Position numbers and translations under genes: made by a program. This document shows positions 21,820 through 63,347 of a stretch of DNA of 64,000 bases, in pieces (within the stretch, counting starts at the first letter, position 1; each line of letters begins with the position of its first letter). Source of the stretch: an uncultured Candidatus Saccharibacteria bacterium (lineage in GTDB: Bacteria; Patescibacteriota; Doudnabacteria; UBA920). The notes below the pieces were generated by a model that made no database searches, was not told where the DNA came from, and saw only the letters and a list, made by a program, of their open reading frames with translations. The stretch is from NCBI GenBank assembly GCA_964483665.1, contig CAZACP010000003.1, positions 29,692 through 93,691 of the forward strand. Reading direction: 5' to 3'.

Positions 21820-23940
21820 ATGCGTTTTGCAACGCTTCTTTTTGTCTTTTCTTGCGTACTTGTTAGCGCGCAAGAACGCTTTTCAACTCGTGCCCTGACC
21901 TCACAGGGCTACATAACCCGGGAGTATTGGGCGGGCGAGATAATCGCAAAGCCCAAAGGCTACGCCGGCGTCTCGGCCAAAACCGAAACCCGCTCCGCTC
22001 TCGCTGAAGCCGTAGTTGATGCTTTGGGCTACGCGTACATCCCCCACACCGGAGATGTCGCATCACTCACTGCCCGCGCTACCGCAATGTCAGCAAACCC
22101 AGACTTCGAGTCGGTTTCGCTGTCGCCGGTAGCCAAAGCAGACCAAGCGCCTCAGCCTGTTAATGACCCAGCCTTTTGGCTGCAGTGGGGTCTTGGCAAT
22201 TCCCTGCCCGCTGGCTCTTCGTGGAAGCCAAGCACCAAGAGGTTTGACAACCTCTACATCGGATCGTTTGACACTGGCGCCTGCTTCGGTCACGAGGACT
22301 TTGACTGGAGTAGAAATGAGGTCAAACTCAACTACAACGCCATACTCGCGCCAAAATCACCCGAGGCCATACCTTTTGACGACAACGGCCATGGGTGCGC
22401 AACTACCGGCATCGTCGCAGCCAAGTCCAACAACCGATTAGGTATTTCGGGTATGGCGGACAACGTCAAGACCGCATACATAAAGGTTCTCGATGCTAAG
22501 GGCAACGGCAAGGTCAAGGACATTGTTTCCGGCATTCTCGAATACGCAACCCGCGTCAAGAATATGCCGGCAGGGTCTAGATTCCTTGCCATAATGGCTT
22601 TCGGCTTCGAAGAACAGGTGCCGCCCATCGAGGAGGCCGTCCAAATCGCCCGCAAAGCAGGGATCATGTTCTTTGCTTCCGCGGGAAACGAGGGTTGGGA
22701 TCTAAGCCGCTTTAAGAAAACACCGGCAACAACTGACGGCGTAATCTCGGTAGCGGCCTGCACTCCCCAAAACGAGCTTGTAGTTAAGACGTTCTGGGCT
22801 TCCAACTACGGGAATCCCGTACTCGGGTGTGCCGCGGGAGTAGAAGTCTGGACAACGGTTCCAAAGCCAACAGAAAGCAGCAGCTACGAACTAGCAGACC
22901 CTTCCGGCTATAAAATGCTTGAGGGAACGTCGTTCGCTGTCTCTTTCTACGCCGGTGCTGCTGCCCAACTCATAAACGAAAAACCGGATATATCCGAAGA
23001 GGAAATCCGGATTCGGCTTATGAACGGCAACCGTAAGGTTGCGCCCGCTACGATTTGGAAACGGTCTTATCAAGGTCCGGATCTGTTCGTTTCAGGCAGC
23101 AGCCTCTACTTACCAACTGCCCTGGCGGAAGATAACCAAGCTCCGGCGCAACCGGTTTTGGAAATCACGCCCGGCCACAGCTCGGCTCGCATAAGGCTTT
23201 CAGACACGGAAAGGCCGTTCGGCATTCGCTGCGCCTATGGCAACATAGGCGACCAGCAAATACTCGAACTGGTGCCGTACTTTGGCAACGAGGATATTAT
23301 TCTCAAAAACCAAGACGGTACCCCGCTTCCTTCCTCCACCGACCTTCAAGTCGCGTGCAAAATGGTAGACGGCGCCGGCAACTGGTCACCTCTTTCCCGC
23401 GGGGCTTCGTTCCACACCAAGGAAAGCAAAAGTGAAGCGGTTTCGCTCAACCTGTTCAACGCCAGTCTGGGTCCCTTGGGCGACATAATTGCCCAGGCTG
23501 ACCCAAACACCAGGCCGTTATGGTCTCCTAAGGAGTTCCCTCTGCTGGGACAAATGACCTGGTACGCCGGAACACAAGCGTTGAACTACCGGGTCGGCGA
23601 CAACGACTCGGTACTGGTGTCCGAACCCATCGCCCTACCCGAGGGCTCAGTGTCAATTAATCTGCGACAGTTTGTGCAGATGATTGGCACCCGCGCCCAA
23701 GGAATGCACTTTGACAGCTCAGAACTGTCAGTGCTGTGGCAAGAGGACGGCCAAGAACGGCAAAAAGTCCTTCGGCAGATAATGCCGAACTCCAAAGAGT
23801 TCGGGCTAGAAGCCTTTCAACTCGACGTCACCGAATTCGCGGGCAAGACCGTCCGCCTCCAATTCCGCCTGTTTACCAACGGCTCCTCCGTTGGCATAGG
23901 CTGGATTGTCGGGGCCGTGGAGGTACGTAGCGACAAGTAG
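21820..23940 (+). CDS. Secreted subtilisin-like serine peptidase (S8 family), in a GC-rich island
   Basis: Signal peptide MRFATLLFVFSCVLVSAQE; catalytic triad motifs GSFDTGACFGHEDF (Asp), NGHGCATTGIVAA (His), GTSFAVSFYAGAAAQL (Ser). The ORF track start at 21760 lacks a Shine-Dalgarno, so 21820 is preferred. Confidence 0.85.
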   Translation: MRFATLLFVFSCVLVSAQERFSTRALTSQGYITREYWAGEIIAKPKGYAGVSAKTETRSALAEAVVDALGYAYIPHTGDVASLTARATAMSANPDFESVSLSPVAKADQAPQPVNDPAFWLQWGLGNSLPAGSSWKPSTKRFDNLYIGSFDTGACFGHEDFDWSRNEVKLNYNAILAPKSPEAIPFDDNGHGCATTGIVAAKSNNRLGISGMADNVKTAYIKVLDAKGNGKVKDIVSGILEYATRVKNMPAGSRFLAIMAFGFEEQVPPIEEAVQIARKAGIMFFASAGNEGWDLSRFKKTPATTDGVISVAACTPQNELVVKTFWASNYGNPVLGCAAGVEVWTTVPKPTESSSYELADPSGYKMLEGTSFAVSFYAGAAAQLINEKPDISEEEIRIRLMNGNRKVAPATIWKRSYQGPDLFVSGSSLYLPTALAEDNQAPAQPVLEITPGHSSARIRLSDTERPFGIRCAYGNIGDQQILELVPYFGNEDIILKNQDGTPLPSSTDLQVACKMVDGAGNWSPLSRGASFHTKESKSEAVSLNLFNASLGPLGDIIAQADPNTRPLWSPKEFPLLGQMTWYAGTQALNYRVGDNDSVLVSEPIALPEGSVSINLRQFVQMIGTRAQGMHFDSSELSVLWQEDGQERQKVLRQIMPNSKEFGLEAFQLDVTEFAGKTVRLQFRLFTNGSSVGIGWIVGAVEVRSDK

Positions 23941-24048
23941 TCAACTTGTCGGCTAGTTCCTCCTTCGGCAACGAAAAAGCAGCATAGTTACCAAACGCAA
24001 AAACGCCGGAGAGCTATAAACTCACCGGCGTTTTCATTTTGCTTATTT

Positions 24049-27415: not shown

Positions 27416-28079
27416 TAACCCACTCCTTTCAAAGAAAATGACCACGATGCACAATAACACTCGTGGATAGCTTAAATTTTGAATAATTTCTACTCTTATG
27501 TCAATCCCCCTGCTGCTTGACAGGCAAAAGTAAAAGGCGCTGGGGAAACGAAAATAGAACTCGTTCCCAGCGCCCGGGTTTGCGGTTGCGAATTCGCGAG
27601 CCGTAGATGTTAGAAACACCGACGACCCACGTTTGAAAGAAACCATAACAGCCGCCACAGACGTACTTTCAGCGGTGTATGCATTATCCCCTCCCCGGCC
27701 GGCAGAATCTAAACAATGTAATGCTCCAACTCAGCCGGAACCGAATTCGCTTTTTGCGCTTTACAAGCGCATAAACGTCATTGAAAAAATCAATCGCCCA
27801 CCCGCGTGGATAGCTCCCCACTACAAACAAAAAATCTCTCACTGTACTATCTTTTTCCATGGGACCTCCCATTCCCAACAAGTTTAGCAAAATACATTAG
27901 ACTTGTCTAAAAATTCATTAATTTGACTAAAAATTATTTTTTCAGTAAACTTCGTATATCTTTCGCACATGCTCAGTATGTGCGTAGTAGTACGTTTCTC
28001 CGCAAGGAGAACCTCTAACGTACTTCTGGTCCGTTGCCCCAGCCATAGAGGTGGCTGGACTTTCAACAAGGAGTGGAAA

Positions 28080-28772
28080 ATGTCAGATTTTCGCAAGCTG
28101 TTACTTGCGTTCGCTGCAGTGACCCTCTTCGCAGGGATTGCCAGTGCCGGCCCCGCGCCGGCGCTCAACCACACCGCCCAACCCTTTTCGGTGCGGGATG
28201 ATGCCACCAGCGCTATCGCGCCAGACATCATTTCCATCGATGTTAAGATGAATCAGTTCTTCTCGGTTTGCGGCGCAGGTCTCCAGGCGCCGGCGTGGTT
28301 GAATGAATCGGGGTTGTCAGTGATGGACAACGCCCAGTCGCTGAATATCGGTGCTCCGGCGCTTCCGCCGGCACCGAATATCGCCGCTCTCGAATCCGGT
28401 ACCGCTGTCGCTTCCGGCAACGCCCCGATTATCGCGAACACAGGCCAGACCACGTTGTCTGCGCCTTCCGCCCAGGCTACCGGCACTACTGCCGCTACGC
28501 CCGCCAACCTGCTGAACTCGAATTCCGCTAAGAATACGGCTAACCTACTGAGCCAAACGACGCTGGGTTCGAATATCCTGAACGGCACAGCCAACACCAA
28601 CAACCAATTCGCGGTTGTCGACGGTAACCCTGCAGCCGACTCTTCTGTTCTTTTCAACGCTGACGCACCAGACGCCTCTACGAGCGCTGGTCAGACTGCC
28701 GTTGCAACCCATCTCGCTGCCCCTGCACAGGTCGCGAGAACAGCTCCAACGCATGCCGGCTCCGCCGGCTAA
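28080..28772 (+). CDS. Secreted low-complexity Ala/Asn/Thr/Ser-rich protein (GC-rich island)
   Basis: AAGGAG Shine-Dalgarno, then MSDFRKLLLAFAAVTLFAGIASA signal peptide; the ORF track start at 27969 is upstream and in frame. Confidence 0.5.
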   Translation: MSDFRKLLLAFAAVTLFAGIASAGPAPALNHTAQPFSVRDDATSAIAPDIISIDVKMNQFFSVCGAGLQAPAWLNESGLSVMDNAQSLNIGAPALPPAPNIAALESGTAVASGNAPIIANTGQTTLSAPSAQATGTTAATPANLLNSNSAKNTANLLSQTTLGSNILNGTANTNNQFAVVDGNPAADSSVLFNADAPDASTSAGQTAVATHLAAPAQVARTAPTHAGSAG

Positions 28773-28794
28773 CAGCAGCGAAAAGCCCCGCAGG

Positions 28795-28830
28795 GCGCCT
28801 TCCTCACGGACGGCGCCCTCGGTTTTTTTT
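28795..28830 (+). terminator. Rho-independent terminator
   Basis: cagggcgccttcctcacggacggcgccctcggtttttttt. Confidence 0.75.
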
Positions 28831-28961
28831 ATTTTACTATTTATATATCTGTGTTCTCTGTGTAAAAAAAACTGTGTATATTTGACAAAATATTTATTCT
28901 GCTTTAGTATTTATTTTACGTAGCCCCCAAGGGGGCAACTATAGACACAAGGAGTGTATGT

Positions 28962-29075
28962 ATGAAGCGTTTAAAGATGGCCGGTGCCGCGCGCGCCCAC
29001 AAGGATGTCACTCAGGTTCATGGCGTTCTCGAGGACATTCTCGAAGCGAACGCGGGCACGAAGTCCGACGTCTAG
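28962..29075 (+). CDS. Possible 37-aa small protein MKRLKMAGAARAHKDVTQVHGVLEDILEANAGTKSDV
   Basis: AAGGAG 7 nt upstream of the ATG; followed by the hairpin gggctcccgtagggagccc; below the ORF-track size cutoff. Confidence 0.3.
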   Translation: MKRLKMAGAARAHKDVTQVHGVLEDILEANAGTKSDV

Positions 29076-41955: not shown

Positions 41956-42508
41956 CACTTTACCCTAATATTTCTATTAGGCGTGGACTATATCATTCCG
42001 CCAGAGGCGGACGAGGGGCTTCCCAATCCCACATAGTGGGATAAGTACTCTCTTTCGAGATAGTCTCTGAACCTTCAATGACTTTTCGTCAAAGCTTGGC
42101 TGCTGATTGCCATATCCTTATAAGGATTTAGGGTTCCAGCAATTCACCTCGTTTTTCACTTCCCAATTGCTTGAGAAGGCTGCAATAGACCGGCATGAAT
42201 TTCCTTATGACAGTTGGAACAAATAAGTACGCACTTATTTAGTTCTGCTAAAGTTTTTTGCCAGGACCTTGTTAGGCCATTGGCACCAAGTCCAAAACCT
42301 TTGGTTTTGGGGTCAAGATGATGAAACTCTAGGGCACCGGCGCAACGGTTATATCCACAAAATTGGCATTTGCCACCTTTGTGGGCTATTGCCATTTCTT
42401 TAATCTTTTTGCGCCGTTTGTCTACTGCCTTTTTAAGGTATTCTGCGCGGTCGGAATATTTCCTTTTATCAGGCATAAATTTATGTTTACTGATAAAGGG
42501 TAGTGTTC
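41956..42508 (-). mobile_element. Group I intron (conserved P, Q, R, S elements) with embedded HNH homing-endonuclease ORF
   Basis: In RNA sense: P GUGAAUUGCUGGAACCC, Q GGCAAUCAGCAGCC, R GGUUCAGAGACUAUC, S AUGAUAUAGUCCACG, P9 hairpin CCUAAUAGAAAUAUUAGG, terminal G. Confidence 0.75.
42156..42476 (-). CDS. HNH endonuclease (intron-encoded)
   Basis: CQFCGYNRCAGALEFHHLDPKTKGF...NGLTRSWQKTLAELNKCVLICSNCHKEIHAG: the HNH His-Me finger with two CxxC pairs. Confidence 0.85.
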   Translation of the reverse strand: MPDKRKYSDRAEYLKKAVDKRRKKIKEMAIAHKGGKCQFCGYNRCAGALEFHHLDPKTKGFGLGANGLTRSWQKTLAELNKCVLICSNCHKEIHAGLLQPSQAIGK

Positions 42509-51541: not shown

Positions 51542-52126
51542 ATGGACTTTTTTAAAATCCTTTTATTTGCGTCTCTCGTTTCAGCAATTATAGCATATAC
51601 TCTATATATTAGGCTTATTGCAAAGAACCAAATAAAACCCCATGGTGTTACCTACCTGGTGTGGAGCATTATTTTAGGTCTAAATTTTGTTATTCAGTTA
51701 AAATCTGGCGTAGGCATTAGCGCCTTTTTCTTAGGCGTAAACTTTCTTGGTTGCGGTCTTGTTTTTTTGTTCTGCTTAATAAAAGGTCACGTTCGCTACG
51801 ACAAACTAGATTGGTTCTGTTTTGCACTAGCCATAATAGCAATCCTACTCTGGCTTTTTGCTACGACTCCTTTATACTCTGTTATTTTATCTTGCGTAAT
51901 AGACTTTTTTGCTATCTTCCCCAGCTTCAGAAAAAGTTTTAAAGACCCATGGGAAGACTCGCCGATTGCGTACTGGATCGCTGCCTTGGAATATTTATTT
52001 TCTATACCTTCATACCAAGTCTTTTCTATAATCACCCTACTTTACCCAATTTGCATAATGACTATTGAATTCGGCTATGCTCTTTTCATCTGGATCAGAA
52101 GGTTACAATTAAAACAGCCAGTTTGA
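51542..52126 (+). CDS. Polytopic membrane protein, hypothetical
   Basis: 194 aa, 6-7 hydrophobic helices. Confidence 0.5.
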   Translation: MDFFKILLFASLVSAIIAYTLYIRLIAKNQIKPHGVTYLVWSIILGLNFVIQLKSGVGISAFFLGVNFLGCGLVFLFCLIKGHVRYDKLDWFCFALAIIAILLWLFATTPLYSVILSCVIDFFAIFPSFRKSFKDPWEDSPIAYWIAALEYLFSIPSYQVFSIITLLYPICIMTIEFGYALFIWIRRLQLKQPV

Positions 52127-52174
52127 CAGATATCTAAAAAGTATATATAATGTATATATCATTAAAAATATATT

Positions 52175-52465
52175 ATGACTACCCAAGTAATTTTCAAACT
52201 TGACTCGGCTATAAAGAAAAAAGCACAAAAAGTTGCCAAAAAATATGGTTCAACCTTTTCTGCCTATTTACAACAGGCCAGTTACGATCTTGTCGCAGGC
52301 GCGGTAAGGCCTGGATTAGTAATAGAACCCGAGCGCTTTAACGCTAAAACCAGGCGTATAATGGATAAAGCCCTTAAAGATATAAAAGAAGGTAAAAATT
52401 TGGTTGGGCCTTTTAACAACGCCAAAGAAGCTATTGCATACCTAAAAAATCGTCATGCGCGTTGA
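52175..52465 (+). CDS. Type II antitoxin (RelB/DinJ-like)
   Basis: 96 aa; overlaps the downstream toxin gene by 11 nt. Confidence 0.55.
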   Translation: MTTQVIFKLDSAIKKKAQKVAKKYGSTFSAYLQQASYDLVAGAVRPGLVIEPERFNAKTRRIMDKALKDIKEGKNLVGPFNNAKEAIAYLKNRHAR

Positions 52466-53967: not shown

Positions 53968-56211
53968 ATGGGAAGAACAGGTATAAAAATTGAATCCGCC
54001 AACGAACATATTAGGCCTGAGGCTGAGATCTCTTTTAAATTTGACCCGACTGAAAAAACCAATGTCAAATTAAAAGAAAAGGTATTAAGCCTGTTTGCGC
54101 AAGCAGACATTCTACATTATGAAGGCCAAAACAGAATATTAGACACAGAAAAACTTAAACAAATTCGCTTATCAGAACCCCTATTTGAAAACAAACATAT
54201 TGACTTAAAACAAGTTTTACAAGTATTATCACAAATTAAAGCATTACCCAAACCTGCTGACAAATTTTCGAAGCCAAGCCCTGAAAAACCTGTAGTGGTA
54301 ATACCAAAAGACTTAAAACAATTACTGGAACCTGGTTTAAATGGCTATGCAGAAATTTCACAAACTGAATTAGTCCACCCTTGGAAAATTTCTGGAAAAT
54401 TTCAACATTGGACAACCCCCGTGAGACTTGCTTCCGGAGATCGAACCAATTTTTCCGAAATGGCTTTTTTAAGCGGCTTAAAAAAACTAAAAGCAAAAAG
54501 AAACGAACAAGGCGCGCTTCTTTTATGGGACGACGAAAAAAAAGATTGGGTCAATTTTAGCGGCGAAACTTTTTTGGAACTTAGCGGCATTTATCCCGCA
54601 ACACAGAAAGATAAAGGGAATATATCTTTAAAATCCCAGGGTTTTTCATTCGCGCAAAATTATATGCCTAATTTAATTAGGCAAGGAATTTTAAAAAAAA
54701 GTGATTTTAGAATTTATGGCAATTCCCCAACTGCTGAAATACATTCCGTCAACGAAAAACCTTTAAACAAAACAGCGCATTTAAATTTCACAAATTCAGA
54801 AGGACTGACAGCTAAGTACTATTTAGGCAGAAATTTTGTGACGGGCACAAAAATTCCCAAAGACGGCAAAGTAAAAGCCAAACTAATCGCACCGAATTTA
54901 GTGGCCATAATACAAATAAAACAAAACGGACAGGAAGAAATTTCCCATGTATTTAATTTACTCGATACTGAAGAACTAAAAGTGTTAAGGGATTCTACAA
55001 CAGAACGACTAAAGCAAAGAAATATAGAACCCACAAAAGAAGCGGTAGCACAAAACACTACCGTAGGCGAAAAAAAAGTTAAAGAAAGTATGCGTAAGTA
55101 TACGGTTACTGAATTTTTACTTCCTAAACCCAAAGAAGATCCAGCCTTGTATTACCAAAGAGTCAGGCCTTTAGACAACCCTGAGTTTGTTTTAAACACT
55201 GTTCAAAAATTCTTTTCAGAAGCCGGCGTAGGCGTGCATAACTTACCCTGGAATGAACAGCTAATGCTGACCAGAATTTTAACCGAAGGACATGAGCTAA
55301 AAAATTTAAAAGAGTTTACAAAAGAATACGGTATAACGGGGGTACGCACTTTTATTTCTTTGGAGTATAACCAAAATTTAGGCGAAAAGCTGCTTAATTT
55401 AGGAGAAAATAAAGGGCTTGCCCGGGCAGTTTTTGAAAAGTTTTCAGAAATAATTGACGCCTCTTACACTGTAGACGAGGCATTAAAAAAATTTAACATT
55501 AGCTCTGAAGACTTAAGCCTAGAAAACAAAATAGCTCTGCAAAATTTACTCTTTAACAAAGCTTCTAAACTACTTGAGGAATATGGAAATTTAATAAACA
55601 ATCCAAGAATAAATGAACTTGAAACACTTACAATAATTAAAAGCTTAGAAGCTATAAAATCTGAAATAATACTTTATGCACAAAGCTTTAAACTGTTTGC
55701 TCAGGAAGACAAAACAGAAGTAGATTTTTTATTAAAAAATACTGTTGAAAAAAAATCGTCTGACCTAAACACCAAAGAAATGCAAGAAATGAGAGCAATA
55801 TACTCTTCTAACAGGCTTTCGTTTTACCCCGCAGAATTAGCTAAATCTTCAGTAGAAGATTTTGAAAAAACAATTACCGAACCTGGTCATAACTTTGTCT
55901 TACTAAAAGACAATCAGGATAACATTTTGGCTTTTTTTCATTATGACCAAATTGATACTGAAAATATTTATATTGGCTCTTTAAATTTAAATCCTTCTGC
56001 CAAAGATTCACCTGTAGCAGTAATATTTATGCGGGAGCAGACCAAAAAACTTGGTTCTATGTATGACATTAATGCCGTAGTTTGGCAGAACAACCCTGCC
56101 CGATTATTTTATACGAAAAAGCTAGGTTTTGTTAAAACAGAAGAATATGCAGATGCTAATTCAGGAGAAATTTTCTGGAAAATACTCCGCAAAAAAACTA
56201 AACCACTCTAG
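53968..56211 (+). CDS. Large hypothetical protein with a C-terminal GNAT acetyltransferase-like domain
   Basis: C-terminus VAVIFMREQTKKLGSMYDINAVVWQNNPARLFYTKKLGF (GNAT motifs A and B). Confidence 0.55.
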   Translation: MGRTGIKIESANEHIRPEAEISFKFDPTEKTNVKLKEKVLSLFAQADILHYEGQNRILDTEKLKQIRLSEPLFENKHIDLKQVLQVLSQIKALPKPADKFSKPSPEKPVVVIPKDLKQLLEPGLNGYAEISQTELVHPWKISGKFQHWTTPVRLASGDRTNFSEMAFLSGLKKLKAKRNEQGALLLWDDEKKDWVNFSGETFLELSGIYPATQKDKGNISLKSQGFSFAQNYMPNLIRQGILKKSDFRIYGNSPTAEIHSVNEKPLNKTAHLNFTNSEGLTAKYYLGRNFVTGTKIPKDGKVKAKLIAPNLVAIIQIKQNGQEEISHVFNLLDTEELKVLRDSTTERLKQRNIEPTKEAVAQNTTVGEKKVKESMRKYTVTEFLLPKPKEDPALYYQRVRPLDNPEFVLNTVQKFFSEAGVGVHNLPWNEQLMLTRILTEGHELKNLKEFTKEYGITGVRTFISLEYNQNLGEKLLNLGENKGLARAVFEKFSEIIDASYTVDEALKKFNISSEDLSLENKIALQNLLFNKASKLLEEYGNLINNPRINELETLTIIKSLEAIKSEIILYAQSFKLFAQEDKTEVDFLLKNTVEKKSSDLNTKEMQEMRAIYSSNRLSFYPAELAKSSVEDFEKTITEPGHNFVLLKDNQDNILAFFHYDQIDTENIYIGSLNLNPSAKDSPVAVIFMREQTKKLGSMYDINAVVWQNNPARLFYTKKLGFVKTEEYADANSGEIFWKILRKKTKPL

Positions 56212-56971
56212 CATTTTGCCACATTACCTCAAACAAAGTTTTATGCATTTGACTAATAATAGGGTTATCAAGAATAGCTGATACAATGTTTTTATCTTGT
56301 AATGTAATGTAAGAGATTTTAGTCCCGTAAATTTGCATTACTGCGCTAAAAGGCTGCTTGGCCGCAACTACCCTCGCCTGGGTAGTTTTTGTATTAAAAC
56401 TTTTTATATGCTGCCTGACAAAAATGCTGTCCTCAAGTATTAATTTTTTTGTAATCCCTGCTTTAAGTCTTTTTTCCACATACTCCCTATTAATTTCCGG
56501 GTAATTTTTATTTACCGCCTCGCTGTCTACAAAAGCATAAATCTCGCCTTTTGCGTTTAAACTGTCCGCCAAGACTTTTTTTGCGCCGTCCATACCTTCA
56601 AAAATTTGAATGCCGGGCATACCTAAAACCATATTAAAATCTGAAATAAGCTTGGGTAAAAAACCACTAAGAGCTATTTCAGCGTTTTTAAATTGTTCCT
56701 GGCGCTTTTCTACCCATTCCTTAATTTTAAACGGGTGTGCTGCCTCAAAAACCGCGACCTTGCCCTTTTCTTCCTTTTTTACCACCAAACCCATTTCTGC
56801 TAAATCAGTAAGAATTTTATAGGTTAAGCTCCTTTTAAACGGCACAAAATTCCCCAGACTGGAAGCCTTTTTTGGGCCGCTTTTTAACAGCGCTTCGTAA
56901 ACCAAAGCCTGATCCCCTTTTAGTCCGGCTTGGGTTAATATTTGCAAATACTTATTGTATGAATTGGCCAT
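56198..56971 (-). CDS. TrmB-family-like transcriptional regulator (N-terminal winged helix-turn-helix)
   Basis: YLQILTQAGLKGDQALVYEALLKSGPKKASSLGNFVPFKRSLTYKILTDLAEMGLV. Confidence 0.55.
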   Translation of the reverse strand: MANSYNKYLQILTQAGLKGDQALVYEALLKSGPKKASSLGNFVPFKRSLTYKILTDLAEMGLVVKKEEKGKVAVFEAAHPFKIKEWVEKRQEQFKNAEIALSGFLPKLISDFNMVLGMPGIQIFEGMDGAKKVLADSLNAKGEIYAFVDSEAVNKNYPEINREYVEKRLKAGITKKLILEDSIFVRQHIKSFNTKTTQARVVAAKQPFSAVMQIYGTKISYITLQDKNIVSAILDNPIISQMHKTLFEVMWQNARVV

Positions 56972-57114
56972 ATATTTTTAGGTTATATGGGTATTATAGC
57001 AAAACATAATATTTTTGTCAAGACTTTTGTAACAAAAATGTACCAAAAATATTAGTAATTTTGCCTATTTTTATTAAAGATACATATTTAATTTATAATT
57101 TTGACATAATATTA

Positions 57115-57143
57115 TTGACATTTTAGTTATTTTTAGTTATAAT
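57115..57143 (+). promoter_or_regulatory. Perfect sigma70 consensus promoter (TTGACA, 17 nt, TATAAT)
   Basis: ttgacattttagttatttttagttataat. Confidence 0.65.
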
Positions 57144-57149
57144 GTTTTG

Positions 57150-57510
57150 TTAACCTTTAACAGGGTTAATATTAACAATCTATATATCTTGCCTGAAATG
57201 TATGATTTTAGAGTGAATAACCTAAAACTTATATTTCTAAACATTCTGACAGGAAGGAATGTTTAAGGCAGATCCAGCTAAAGTTAATAAGTCTAAAGTG
57301 TTTAGTGCTGTATATAACCCTTCTTTGGTAAAACTACGAAGGGCAAGCAGGAATTTACGGCTCTGACCGCTTATATAACTTCCTAGCAAGAAGTGCGACC
57401 CTTCATCATGCTAAAACATGGTGAATGGGACACTCCTTGCTAACCCCTTTCTAAGCCTTGTGCGAAGTAGGGACTAGATTTAAAACCCTTCCTGTCCGGA
57501 AGGGTTTTAA
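57150..57510 (+). ncRNA. Candidate ~350-nt non-coding transcript or leader RNA (promoter to intrinsic terminator, no ORF above 25 codons)
   Basis: Lies between the consensus promoter and the terminator aaaacccttcctgtccggaagggtttt (57480-57510); no tmRNA or RNase P signature motifs seen. Confidence 0.35.
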
Positions 57511-57596
57511 ATTGCTAAGGACGAAAATATGTAAAATTATTCTCCCTTCTTTTTTGCAGATTACACATAGCCTGTAAAAATGAAGGGAGAGGAAAT

Positions 57597-57899
57597 ATGG
57601 TATGCAATGAAGGGGGCTGCACCGCCCCGGTAACGGTGCAAAATGGATTCGTTCCCGCCCTGGCCGAAATTTCGGCCTTGGCAGGCAAGCCGGTCACCCG
57701 GCTTACCGAGAACGAGGTTCTCGCAGTCGGATACTGCGAGGACTGTGCTGCCATCCATGGGATGTGCGGCGGCAAAAAGCTTTTCTCCGCCAGCCGCGCG
57801 CTGGCGGAAATAGAAAAACAACAAAAGGCGGCTAACCACGCCGCCGCCCGGCAAACGCTGGGCGCGGCATTTGTGGCCGCAGGCTTCCAAGCCAAGTAG
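57597..57899 (+). CDS. Small Cys-rich hypothetical protein (first gene of the GC-rich island)
   Basis: MVCNEGGCTAPV...GYCEDCAAIHGMCGG; Shine-Dalgarno GGGAGAGG; GC-rich. Confidence 0.5.
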   Translation: MVCNEGGCTAPVTVQNGFVPALAEISALAGKPVTRLTENEVLAVGYCEDCAAIHGMCGGKKLFSASRALAEIEKQQKAANHAAARQTLGAAFVAAGFQAK

Positions 57900-58108
57900 C
57901 CTTGGAAGCCAAACGCACGCGAGGGAGTTAGAGAGCAGCACACTCTTCTAACTCCCCTTTCTCCAGCTCGTGATTGTAAAATCATTGGCTGAAGATTGTA
58001 ACCGAACTAGCGGTCATACTAGGAAGCTGGTCTGTCTCGCCCAGTATAAAAAAGGCAACCTGCCATACCACAGACAGTGGTGCAGGAAACTCCTAGGAGG
58101 GGTTATGA
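57882..58108. repeat. 227-bp perfect direct repeat, copy 1 (hairpin-hairpin-conserved element-Shine-Dalgarno-ATGA)
   Basis: Identical by eye to 58528-58754. Confidence 0.85.
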
Positions 58109-58512: not shown

Positions 58513-58527
58513 CAATGTCCTGCCGCT

Positions 58528-58754
58528 GGCTTCCAAGCCAAGTAGCCTTGGAAGCCAAACGCACGCGAGGGAGTTAGAGAGCAGCACACTCTTCTAACTC
58601 CCCTTTCTCCAGCTCGTGATTGTAAAATCATTGGCTGAAGATTGTAACCGAACTAGCGGTCATACTAGGAAGCTGGTCTGTCTCGCCCAGTATAAAAAAG
58701 GCAACCTGCCATACCACAGACAGTGGTGCAGGAAACTCCTAGGAGGGGTTATGA
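58528..58754. repeat. 227-bp perfect direct repeat, copy 2
   Basis: See copy 1. Confidence 0.85.
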
Positions 58755-59863: not shown

Positions 59864-60093
59864 ATTTACCTTCGTTTTTAGTAACAAAACGAGGGCGTCT
59901 GTCCGAGCGTCATCCGGACAAAAACTTTGTCATTAGCCTAGCAACACACACGCTAGCTAATGACCTTTCTCCAGCTCGTGATTGCAAAATCATTAGCTGA
60001 AGATTGTAAAAATAGTTCTTTAAAAACTCTTCTCCTTTTTGGGATTCTTGCCATAAATTTTATGGCAAGTGTCCCCAACAGGAGTGGGGTGAA

Positions 60094-60519
60094 ATGAAAT
60101 TTGTTTTTATTATGCAGCACGCGCCGACCACCGACCAGGTGGCCGATGCGCGGCGTATGGGTTTTACGGAAGTAGGCGCTTTTGCGCCACTGCCGGAAAA
60201 CCCGATCGAAGGCGTAAAGTATTTGGGACTGACCCAAAACCTTTACGTTCCAGAAGATTTAGGACTAGAAAGGGACTGGTTTGTAAACCAGGCCCAAACC
60301 ATTCTACAGCTTGCCGGCGTTAAATCCGGTGACGCTATTGTGGCCGCAGGTCACGCCCAGCTAATGACCGCGGTTAATGCTGTGGCAAAACAGCTGGGCA
60401 TCGCCCGCTTTGAGTCCGTAACGGCCCGGGTGTCCGAGGACATCCATGGGTCTGACGGCTCGGTCAAGACAGTCCAGGTGTTCAAGCACCTGGGCTATAG
60501 GAAAATTTTTGACTTCTAG
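60094..60519 (+). CDS. Hypothetical protein (141 aa)
   Basis: Preceded by a conserved 45-nt element and the Shine-Dalgarno aggagtgggg. Confidence 0.5.
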   Translation: MKFVFIMQHAPTTDQVADARRMGFTEVGAFAPLPENPIEGVKYLGLTQNLYVPEDLGLERDWFVNQAQTILQLAGVKSGDAIVAAGHAQLMTAVNAVAKQLGIARFESVTARVSEDIHGSDGSVKTVQVFKHLGYRKIFDF

Positions 60520-61555: not shown

Positions 61556-62073
61556 TAGCGGCAGACTCATCTCGCCGCCGGGGTTGATTCCCCCGTTAAA
61601 GCCCTTATGTCCACACCTTAGGACTTGGGCAAAACAATCATCCGCTTTCCTGGCGGAGCCGGTGGTTATTTCATAAACCCGTCGGCAAACAGGAAGCATT
61701 CATACGGCCAAACAGCACTCGCACTGTTTGTTTGGCCCTCTTTTCCAGGCTGTCATATTATTTTAAATTCCTGTGTTGCTTAGGCAATATAAAAATATCA
61801 TGGCAGCCTGAAAATAGAAAAATAGTTCTTTAAAATTTATTGGAGGAAATAAGAAAGATTTCCTGTCTAAATAGTAGATTAATACTTATCTATTGCTTCG
61901 ACAGGAAATCTTAAATCTCCTAGTCGGTTAGTTGTAAGGACCGCTGGGTTAAAAGCCCGGCATTGTGCTGTTGTTTGTTTTAGTTTAAGAACCGCGGCAC
62001 TTTGGCCGCTTTGCCCAGTTTTGCGTGTTCATCGCTCTTTTAGTAGGGCTTACTGTCCAGTGAAAAGCTGACG

Positions 62074-63006: not shown

Positions 63007-63347
63007 CAACAAAACGAGGTGGCGAGTCTAGAGCCGTAATCTAGACAAACACTCCTAAAGGAGGAATGTTTGTATTAGCCCTTAAATGGGCAACACTCGT
63101 GGGATGAGACAACTCATCCCCTTTCTCCAGCTCGTGATTGTAAAATCATTAGCTGAAGATTGTAAAAATAGTTCTTTAAAAGAAGTAGAGCACGGGCGCG
63201 CTCTAGTGTGCGGGCCTGGATCTTTGCCGGCTTCTCTTTACCCCGAGAAACCTGGCTGTGAGTAAACACATAAAAAACCGAATGTAACATCGTTAAAGTA
63301 CCTGCTCTAACCCGAGATACGGGTGGCGGAGCTCCCAAGGAGGGGTT

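Follow-up and report, generated by a model that had tools for sequence, protein, structure and literature searches.

The stretch analysed here, referred to below as the window, is a 64-kb segment (64,000 nucleotides) of contig CAZACP010000003.1 from an uncultured Candidatus Saccharibacteria bacterium. On its plus strand, between a divergent gene for a TrmB-like regulator and an island of co-directional genes, lies a region that is predicted to be the gene for a highly structured non-coding RNA of approximately 365 nucleotides, representing a family that was previously uncatalogued. We call this RNA type A. The locus contains the following features.

53968 to 56211, plus strand: gene encoding 747 amino acids with a weak GNAT match at the C terminus; it converges on the TrmB-like gene and overlaps it
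56198 to 56971, minus strand: gene for the TrmB-like winged-helix regulator (Pfam TrmB, 1.7e-9)
56993 to 57021, minus strand: consensus promoter for the TrmB-like gene, in a back-to-back arrangement with that of the RNA
57015 to 57035, no strand assigned: imperfect palindrome TTGTCAA-N5-TTGTAACAA, overlapping the -35 element of the regulator's promoter
57150 to 57512, plus strand: predicted primary transcript of the type A TrmB-divergent RNA, with a start at about 57149 to 57152 placed from the position of the -10 element
57478 to 57512, plus strand: intrinsic terminator, a hairpin of 15-16 base pairs (AAAACCCUUCC-UGUCC-GGAAGGGUUUU, -19.7 kcal/mol) and then the U-run UUUUAAAUU
57597 to 57899, plus strand: first gene of the co-directional, GC-richer island, coding for 100 amino acids with no family match

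The promoter of the RNA is formed by TTGACA at 57115-57120, a spacer of 17 nucleotides, and TATAAT at 57138-57143 on the plus strand, and it matches the sigma70 consensus at 12 of 12 positions. An additional TTGACA is present at 57103-57108, 12 nucleotides 5' of this promoter. Perfect TTGACA-17-TATAAT arrangements occur three times in the window, versus 0.03 expected from dinucleotide-preserving shuffles. One of the others (57021-56993, minus strand) serves the TrmB-like gene, and the third (52123-52151, plus strand) is located ahead of an open reading frame (ORF) for 96 amino acids at 52175-52465. Both hexamers of the RNA promoter are invariant in three homologous loci (L007-L009), and a near-consensus divergent promoter is found in 77 of the 80 TrmB loci described below.

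From the promoter to the end of the hairpin terminator, the transcript spans approximately 365 nucleotides. The terminator ends 85 nucleotides before the ATG at 57597 that begins the first island gene, and eight of nine close homologues retain its hairpin. The terminator is missing from the list produced by a simple terminator scan because its U-run pairs with an upstream A-run. An earlier interpretation of this DNA, hereafter the sequence-only reading, had claimed both a sigma70 promoter at 57115-57143 and a strong terminator 85 nucleotides ahead of the island, and both are borne out. However, its statement that the interval holds no ORF longer than about 22 codons was wrong. The plus strand carries ORFs of 39 codons (TTG start, 57147-57266), 35 codons (ATG start, 57259-57366) and 39 codons (57458-57577), and the minus strand carries ORFs of 35 and 50 codons. 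The label "non-coding" still holds, because conservation of the small-ORF peptides stops at the closest relative, which has fragments of them.

As a single strand, the 366 nucleotides fold with -119.8 kcal/mol (z = -7.8 relative to dinucleotide shuffles). RNAalifold applied to nine full-length close sequences yields 58 base pairs in seven helices. All elements of the resulting model, which are listed here from 5' to 3', are on the plus strand.

57150 to 57169: 5'-terminal hairpin (UUAACCUU / AGGGUUAA), directly at the predicted start
57239 to 57264: hairpin P2 (helix 2), pairing 57239-57247 with 57256-57264, with the loop GACAGGAA at 57248-57255
57267 to 57279: short GGC...GCU hairpin (helix 3) and then a conserved GCUAnAG; conserved, without covariation
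57283 to 57379: central long-helix domain, comprising helix 4 and an outer helix
57283 to 57291 with 57370 to 57378: outer helix of the central domain (83% paired versus 19-56% slid, with double-sided changes in 5 of 9 pairs)
57302 to 57311 with 57357 to 57366: inner helices of the central domain
57318 to 57343: variable apical hairpin of the central domain
57348 to 57353: second conserved CAGGAA motif, near the apex of the central domain
57384 to 57442: 3' hairpin UAGCAAGAAGUGCG...CACUCCUUGCUA (5' strand also given as UAGCAAGAAGUGC), comprising helices 5 and 6
57444 to 57472: optional small hairpin, present in only some homologues

The predicted structure is strongly supported by covariation. 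The sequence-only reading had suggested comparing the fold across homologues, and this comparison reveals that the structure is kept by compensatory changes: in the close set of nine sequences, 27 of the 58 pairs carry changes on both sides, versus 5-11 when the 3' partners are slid. Likewise, 92% of the cells in this set form standard pairs, versus 40-49% with the 3' partners slid by 1-3 columns, and for four of five measures none of 500 shuffles reaches the observed values. In a distant set, 90% of the cells are paired (versus 37-49% slid) and 35 of 59 pairs are changed on both sides, in an alignment (A8) that was fitted to the covariance model and is hence biased toward the structure.

The support is spread over several helices. 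In P2, 7 of 9 pairs have changed on both sides, and the loop sequence is kept in 7 of 9 homologues. The inner pairs of the 3' hairpin show double-sided changes at 9 of 12 positions, and the sequence signature that is best conserved across the family, UAGCAnnnAGUGC, is also located in this hairpin. Helix 4 has 98% of its cells paired and four pairs with double-sided changes. The central domain additionally includes a conserved AAGUG / CCGCUU region, and its base can be drawn in two alternative registers that compete for the CUU at 57370-57372. The alternative register, AAGUG with CGCUU, involves invariant columns, unlike the covarying outer helix. A 5'-terminal hairpin of differing sequence was seen by eye in L007, L009, L020, L095 and L096, and one is also present in L103. 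As judged from these sequence comparisons, the RNA is a genuine structured non-coding RNA that carries its own promoter and terminator.

The homologues were gathered from several sources. Six contigs (L001-L006) encode an identical TrmB-like protein and provide no comparative signal, because their DNA is identical to the window. Loci L007-L009 encode TrmB homologues that are 86, 70 and 67% identical, carry the same promoter upstream of the regulator gene on the opposite strand, and share several conserved blocks spaced by variable-length insertions. A two-block pattern searched in metagenome contigs gave six further places, four of them distinct, each adjoining a TrmB start. The close homologues (L007-L009, L020, L095, L096, L098 and L100) are all located upstream of the TrmB-like gene on the opposite strand. 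A scan with a TrmB alignment of one genome per GTDB species yielded 80 loci from many Patescibacteria classes, among which the nearest named lineage is Candidatus Doudnabacteria.

The nine close sequences were used to build a covariance model, which scores the window RNA at 189.5 bits (match 57178-57511). The model also finds full-length matches at the expected place and on the expected strand in L021 (48 bits), L016 (35 bits) and L013 (33 bits), with further full-length matches in L012 (30 bits, a Doudnabacteria metagenome-assembled genome) and L085 (30 bits, an Uhrbacteria metagenome-assembled genome). These five distant matches have E values from 1e-6 to 1e-11. A search of the 80 GTDB loci with a profile hidden Markov model added no members beyond those found by the covariance model. 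Among viral contigs, a strict pattern gave no hits and a loose pattern gave six, none of which scores with the covariance model, and a BLAST search of the region against a phage collection gave no match. No second copy of the RNA was found within the window. The family therefore has 14 distinct members (the window and 13 others) from limited lineages of the candidate phyla radiation (CPR), which are Doudnabacteria-like except for one Uhrbacteria genome. The length of the RNA across the family is 270-650 nucleotides, with the larger relatives given as 500-700 nucleotides.

No known RNA accounts for the region. The Rfam check named by the sequence-only reading was run with the families of Rfam 15, which include RNase P, signal recognition particle (SRP) RNA, 6S RNA, transfer-messenger RNA (tmRNA), riboswitches, EAR, raiA, OLE, ROOL, GOLLD and HEARO. 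At the gathering threshold, 57000-57600 has no match, and the corresponding site in 25 related loci has none either. With E relaxed to 10, the interval 56950-57650 returned only chance hairpin matches, for example to miRNA models that score 20-26 bits where 45-99 are required. ARAGORN detects neither a tRNA nor a tmRNA over the 64 kb. The earlier claim that the interval lacks tmRNA, RNase P, SRP and 6S signatures is thus upheld. Two likenesses noted by eye were also discarded. A resemblance to SRP helix 8 (GGAAGGAA...AAGGCAGAU) is not kept in L008 or L009, and the strands of a resemblance to RNase P P4 (AAAGU...ACAGGAA...GCUUAU) enclose a short variable hairpin, not a catalytic core. In the literature on structured RNAs in Patescibacteria and on TrmB in that phylum, we found no earlier description of the RNA.

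The only Rfam match at the gathering threshold in the whole window is a group I intron (RF00028) at 41964-42208 on the minus strand, which matches the full-length model with 64.9 bits. The kilobase around it is GC-richer (0.50), and no rRNA or tRNA gene was detected in the 64 kb. Two other segments, 22000-24000 and 28000-29000, have a GC content of 0.55-0.56 relative to about 0.37-0.40 for the genome, and these may be further acquired genes or structured RNAs.

The genomic setting of the family indicates which neighbor matters. In all 13 further homologues, the RNA is divergent from the TrmB-like gene. The genes 3' of the RNA share no homology between loci, except in close pairs. Because the next gene is convergent in five lineages (L012, L013, L016, L021 and L085), the RNA appears to be an independent product at the family level. 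In three of these loci (L012, 1886-2325; L021; L085), homologous genes for ParE-like toxins of 85-87 amino acids are convergent with the RNA and abut its 3' end, and each comes with a small partner gene.

Another locus, L103 (TrmB 67% identical), shares the promoter and the 5' hairpin but lacks the RNA (L103:1840-1990, minus strand). There, a leader of 115 nucleotides leads directly into a GC-rich gene for 159 amino acids, and the genes are island-like. Two further contigs with close TrmB homologues, L101 and L102, break off about 50 nucleotides or less 5' of the TrmB start, at the point expected for the beginning of the RNA and the variable island. These breaks may reflect assembly trouble caused by strain variation.

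The sequence-only reading had offered three identities for the RNA. A small RNA is the option supported at the family level, given the separate promoter and terminator, the covariation, and the lack of a match to any known RNA model. A regulatory RNA belonging to the island does not fit, since the constant partner is the TrmB-like gene on the other side and the downstream genes vary. Island ownership is further countered by the downstream genes that are convergent in five lineages and by the island-like genes of L103 that lack the RNA. The third option, a leader with a terminator-based switch, is weighed below.

The TrmB-like gene and the gene with the GNAT match occur as a pair in 62 of the sequence sources compared, across many Patescibacteria classes. 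The conserved part of the 747-amino-acid protein is its C-terminal 260 residues. The nearest solved relatives of the regulator are TrmBL2 and TrmB, with similarity through the helix-turn-helix (HTH) only. Relatives carry a perfect TTGTCA-N8-TGACAA at the position of the palindrome at 57015-57035, which is a putative operator. In many relatives, TTGACA-N3/4-TGTCAA spans the -35 element and the spacer of the RNA promoter. Thus, the TrmB-like protein might control both of the back-to-back promoters via TTGACA/TGTCAA palindromes.

On the other side of the RNA lie 6.4 kb of co-directional, foreign-looking genes that extend past the end of the window. Two kinds of elements in and before this island are relevant to its expression.

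57540 to 57591, plus strand: hairpin (-25.3 kcal/mol) sequestering the Shine-Dalgarno (SD) sequence GAAGGGAGAGG of the first island gene
60015 to 60024, 61825 to 61834 and 63171 to 63180, plus strand: exact boxA-like GTTCTTTAAA in intergenic DNA of the island, the only three exact copies in the window

No plus-strand promoter better than 9 of 12 was found inside the island. Because the island has no strong plus-strand promoter of its own, the terminator of the RNA is the only visible barrier between it and the sole strong promoter that could serve it. In this genome, therefore, the RNA probably also acts as a gate to the adjacent island. The SD sequence pairs with the upstream UCUCCCUUC in a hairpin that is kept in L007, and this hairpin is, according to the folding model, a second layer of control over the first island gene. 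We had considered a relay wherein the freed 3' arm of the terminator opens the ribosome-binding-site hairpin, and this idea was dropped because the hairpin of -25.3 kcal/mol is far more stable than the 7-bp alternative.

The boxA-like copies at 60015 and 63171 each follow a repeated hairpin motif. This motif of 69 nucleotides has four copies (57949, 58595, 59957 and 63113) that form the hairpin CAGCUCGUGAUU-GUAA-AAUCAUURGCUG, and in two of the four the hairpin is then followed by AGTTCTTTAAAA, giving a nut-site-like arrangement of hairpin plus boxA. An exact duplication of 233 nucleotides is also present between island genes (57876-58108 and 58522-58754). An island protein of 141 amino acids (60094-60519, plus strand) has a weak Csx20 match (NCBIfam, 1.2e-6, below cutoff) and also matches Pfam MJ1673, and it has a homologue in the L007 island. 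When the neighboring proteins were compared with Pfam, NCBIfam, PHROGs and PDB, only the TrmB HTH, the weak GNAT match and this weak Csx20/MJ1673 match emerged. As for the RNA gene being an integration site of the island, in the manner of tRNA or tmRNA genes, its 3' end is not repeated anywhere in the window and no integrase was found among the island proteins, with the far border of the island lying beyond the window.

BoxA-like motifs are also associated with the RNA itself in other members of the family. They are located 10-25 nucleotides past the terminator in L008, L009, L020, L095, L096 and L100. The 5' extensions of L020 and L098 contain such motifs as well. The window's own RNA region (57150-57596) has no intact boxA. 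The larger relatives carry hairpins and then GUUCUUUAA(A), which resembles the boxA of rrn and nut sites; that of E. coli is UGCUCUUUAACAA. BoxA protects long untranslated RNA from Rho-dependent termination (PMC4807359), and a boxA-like motif in the larger relatives is as expected of a long RNA that is itself the product.

A possible link between the fold and the gate is found in the loop of P2. The loop region GACAGGAAGG (57248-57257) is an exact 10-nucleotide complement of CCUUCCUGUC (57487-57496), which comprises the upper 5' arm of the terminator and the first bases of its loop. As free strands, this duplex is calculated at -19.0 kcal/mol versus -19.7 kcal/mol for the terminator hairpin, a figure that ignores the topological strain of pairing 9-10 nucleotides of a closed 8-nucleotide loop. 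A complementarity of 7-11 nucleotides is present in eight of nine close homologues, and L098 lacks both the loop motif and this terminator. Column by column, 87.5% of the cells are paired versus 37-51% when slid, with the pairing kept in 7-8 of 9 homologues, and shuffled controls give values as high as those observed. Sequence conservation is seen in the terminator stem, whereas compensatory change lets the other helices drift. These features would suit an antiterminator and regulated read-through, but the columns are invariant and show no covariation. We regard an antiterminator switch formed by P2 loop-terminator pairing as possible but rather doubtful.

The reading that we favor, and consider reasonably probable, is that the RNA stands alone and exerts its action via invariant exposed loops, its terminator being a regulated or leaky gate. 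The RNA would be made in large amounts and would act as a free molecule. It most likely works via its invariant single-stranded elements, namely the two ACAGGAA hairpin loops and the AAGUG/CCGCUU internal loop, and through these displayed elements it would bind a protein or another nucleic acid. Its terminator would gate the island, as it is the sole barrier between the only strong plus-strand promoter and 6.4 kb of co-directional genes with boxA-like motifs. Pairing of the P2 loop with the 5' arm of the terminator would block terminator formation, leading to read-through.

Several observations weigh against this interpretation, including the alignment bias of the distant set and the strain left out of the duplex energy, both mentioned above. 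The family is small, with its 14 distinct sequences. The discrete RNA of approximately 365 nucleotides and the read-through are both predictions from the nucleotide sequence, and the trans-acting function is a proposal. The promoter of L103 serves genes without the RNA, which fits a dispensable leader as well as it fits an independent gene. The loop-arm columns are invariant and show no covariation, and a common protein-binding motif (GGAAGG) or a tertiary contact could account for their complementarity just as well. This complementarity does include the UGU of the terminator loop, so a shared purine motif alone would not explain it.

The main rival is a purely cis-acting leader, which explains the position of the RNA, the conserved terminator and the boxA motifs. 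Under this explanation, passage of the terminator would be decided by the folded domain, either as a sensor of a ligand or protein or by modifying RNA polymerase in the manner of put or EAR, whereupon the downstream boxA would lock the polymerase into an antiterminated state. The RNA is indeed situated between the promoter and co-directional genes in at least eight of nine window-type loci (naive ORF calls for L020 are ambiguous), and the same promoter in L103 drives similar genes. The island without a strong promoter of its own, the boxA-like motif directly past the terminator in six relatives, the terminator stem whose sequence is conserved unlike the other helices, and the P2 loop complementary to the terminator arm with matched energies are all in keeping with such a leader. 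However, the same RNA core exists in five lineages where the next gene is convergent, and the downstream genes are of no common family across loci, unlike the regulons of riboswitches. In addition, the antiterminator pairing lacks covariation, and 270-650 nucleotides is large for a sensor domain. We regard a purely cis-acting function as unlikely. As for the leader proposed by the sequence-only reading, a terminator-based switch is a live possibility in this genome, with the terminator as sole barrier and the loop complementarity, whereas the coherent co-directional genes that such a leader would serve do not hold across the family.

The conserved loops also raise the prospect of a protein-titrating RNA of the CsrB/RsmZ type, wherein ACAGGAA(G) loops would sequester a CsrA-like regulator. 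The repeat consensus of CsrB is CAGGA(U/A/C)G, and the hairpin loops of type A RNA display a conserved ACAGGAA motif twice (57248-57255 and 57348-57353), with more (C/A)AGGAG motifs in the larger relatives. Its strong, regulated promoter is like those of Csr/Rsm RNAs, and csrA is reported to be among the highly expressed genes of groundwater ultra-small prokaryotes (PMC9938205). These points must be set against the fact that only two motifs are exposed and that six GGA triplets in 363 nucleotides (hand count) are about what base composition would predict. Moreover, the elaborate conserved fold with long-range helices is unlike the hairpin arrays of Csr/Rsm RNAs, and the GGAGAGAG motifs of the type B RNA described below are helix strands rather than loops. 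In tblastn searches for CsrA and Hfq, nothing significant was found in the window or in any of the fetched loci, and we consider the titration model improbable. A divergent housekeeping RNA (RNase P, tmRNA, SRP or 6S) missed by the models would fit the size of about 365 nucleotides and the strong promoter, and RNAs of the CPR are often atypical. Yet the Rfam searches (E up to 10 over 700 nucleotides, and at 25 loci) and ARAGORN are negative, the family is confined to few lineages, and L103 lacks the RNA altogether. The covariation-supported architecture likewise has no P4-like pseudoknot around a catalytic core, lacks tRNA-like ends, and does not form a long rod with a central bubble, making this identity very improbable. 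Least credible is a small protein of 35-39 amino acids whose RNA structure is incidental. The 39- and 35-codon ORFs on the plus strand would allow for it, but beyond the peptide comparison given above, the homologues carry indels of arbitrary length inside these ORFs, and the substitutions in helices are compensatory.

The locus also has a broader setting in other members of the phylum. Paceibacteria-like genomes have a different RNA, which we call type B, of approximately 300 nucleotides at the same position, upstream of TrmB and on the opposite strand. Type B has at least 13 members, including L042, L066, L061, L070, L077, L060, L040, L045 and L043. It begins with a boxA-like AGUUCAUUCAAGGAG, and a second boxA-like motif, UUAUUUGAAAACU, comes shortly after the first in L040, L042 and L043. 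The consensus fold computed with Alifold has 51 pairs, of which 28 show changes on both sides. Neither the covariance model nor the profile hidden Markov model detects homology between types A and B, and Rfam gave no match for the type B members scanned. Because type B occupies the same position, structured RNAs with strong transcription seem to be a general feature of the TrmB locus in Patescibacteria.

A more ambitious proposal, which we put forward tentatively and think unlikely, is that type A RNA is one lineage-specific form of a phylum-wide module. This module would consist of the TrmB-like regulator, the GNAT-like convergent protein, and a divergent consensus promoter for a large structured RNA protected by boxA motifs of the rrn kind. 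Its RNAs would be abundant and functional, and the locus would double as an expression platform for hypervariable acquired genes. If such a module exists, its RNAs could, for example, modify the polymerase, serve as ribonucleoprotein scaffolds or act as ribozymes.

Large, intricately folded bacterial RNAs of unassigned function are rare, and earlier ones have led to ribozymes, riboswitches and ribonucleoprotein machines. CPR/Patescibacteria have very small genomes and cannot be grown alone, and to our knowledge almost nothing has been established about their non-coding RNAs. The locus yields a new, well-supported RNA family whose promoter, terminator and structure are defined, and the conserved TrmB-like partner makes its regulation testable. 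If the P2 loop competes with the 5' arm of the terminator, the RNA would control the switching-on of an acquired gene block. The different structured RNA at the same position in other CPR lineages hints at a general, unrecognised genome feature.

Several known systems resemble parts of this locus. Terminator/antiterminator leaders (riboswitches, T-box RNAs and protein-dependent attenuators) share a conserved fold followed by an intrinsic terminator, an upstream complement of the terminator 5' arm with similar energy, and a second hairpin that hides a ribosome-binding site. Unlike them, type A RNA has no conserved downstream regulon, its core exists without co-directional genes, it matches no known aptamer, and its antiterminator pairing is putative. 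The HK022 put RNA and the EAR of Bacillus eps are also promoter-proximal structured RNAs located before a long operon with terminator-like hairpins, whereas type A RNA is several times larger, has no sequence or model similarity to them, and is also present without a following operon. CsrB and RsmZ are comparable in their CAGGAAG-type loop motifs and in a strong promoter beside a dedicated regulator, but type A has just two such loops, a complex long-range structure, and no csrA that we could find.

The rrn leader and spacer regions and lambdoid nut sites likewise have a strong promoter and a long untranslated structured RNA, flanked in the relatives of the window RNA by GUUCUUUAA(A), and the hairpin-plus-boxA arrangement recurs in the island. 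The likeness is one of motifs; the window RNA (57150-57596) contains no intact boxA, and no rRNA lies downstream. Type A RNA also resembles the orphan large structured non-coding RNAs of bacteria (raiA motif RNA, OLE, ROOL, GOLLD and HEARO). Like it, these have several hundred nucleotides, a covariation-supported multi-helix fold, invariant nucleotides in loops or junctions, and their own promoter and terminator; they are lineage-restricted, and their function cannot be deduced from their neighbors. Type A differs from them in that it matches none of their Rfam models, resides in CPR/Patescibacteria, has a fixed synteny with the TrmB-like gene, and in some members carries boxA-like modules.

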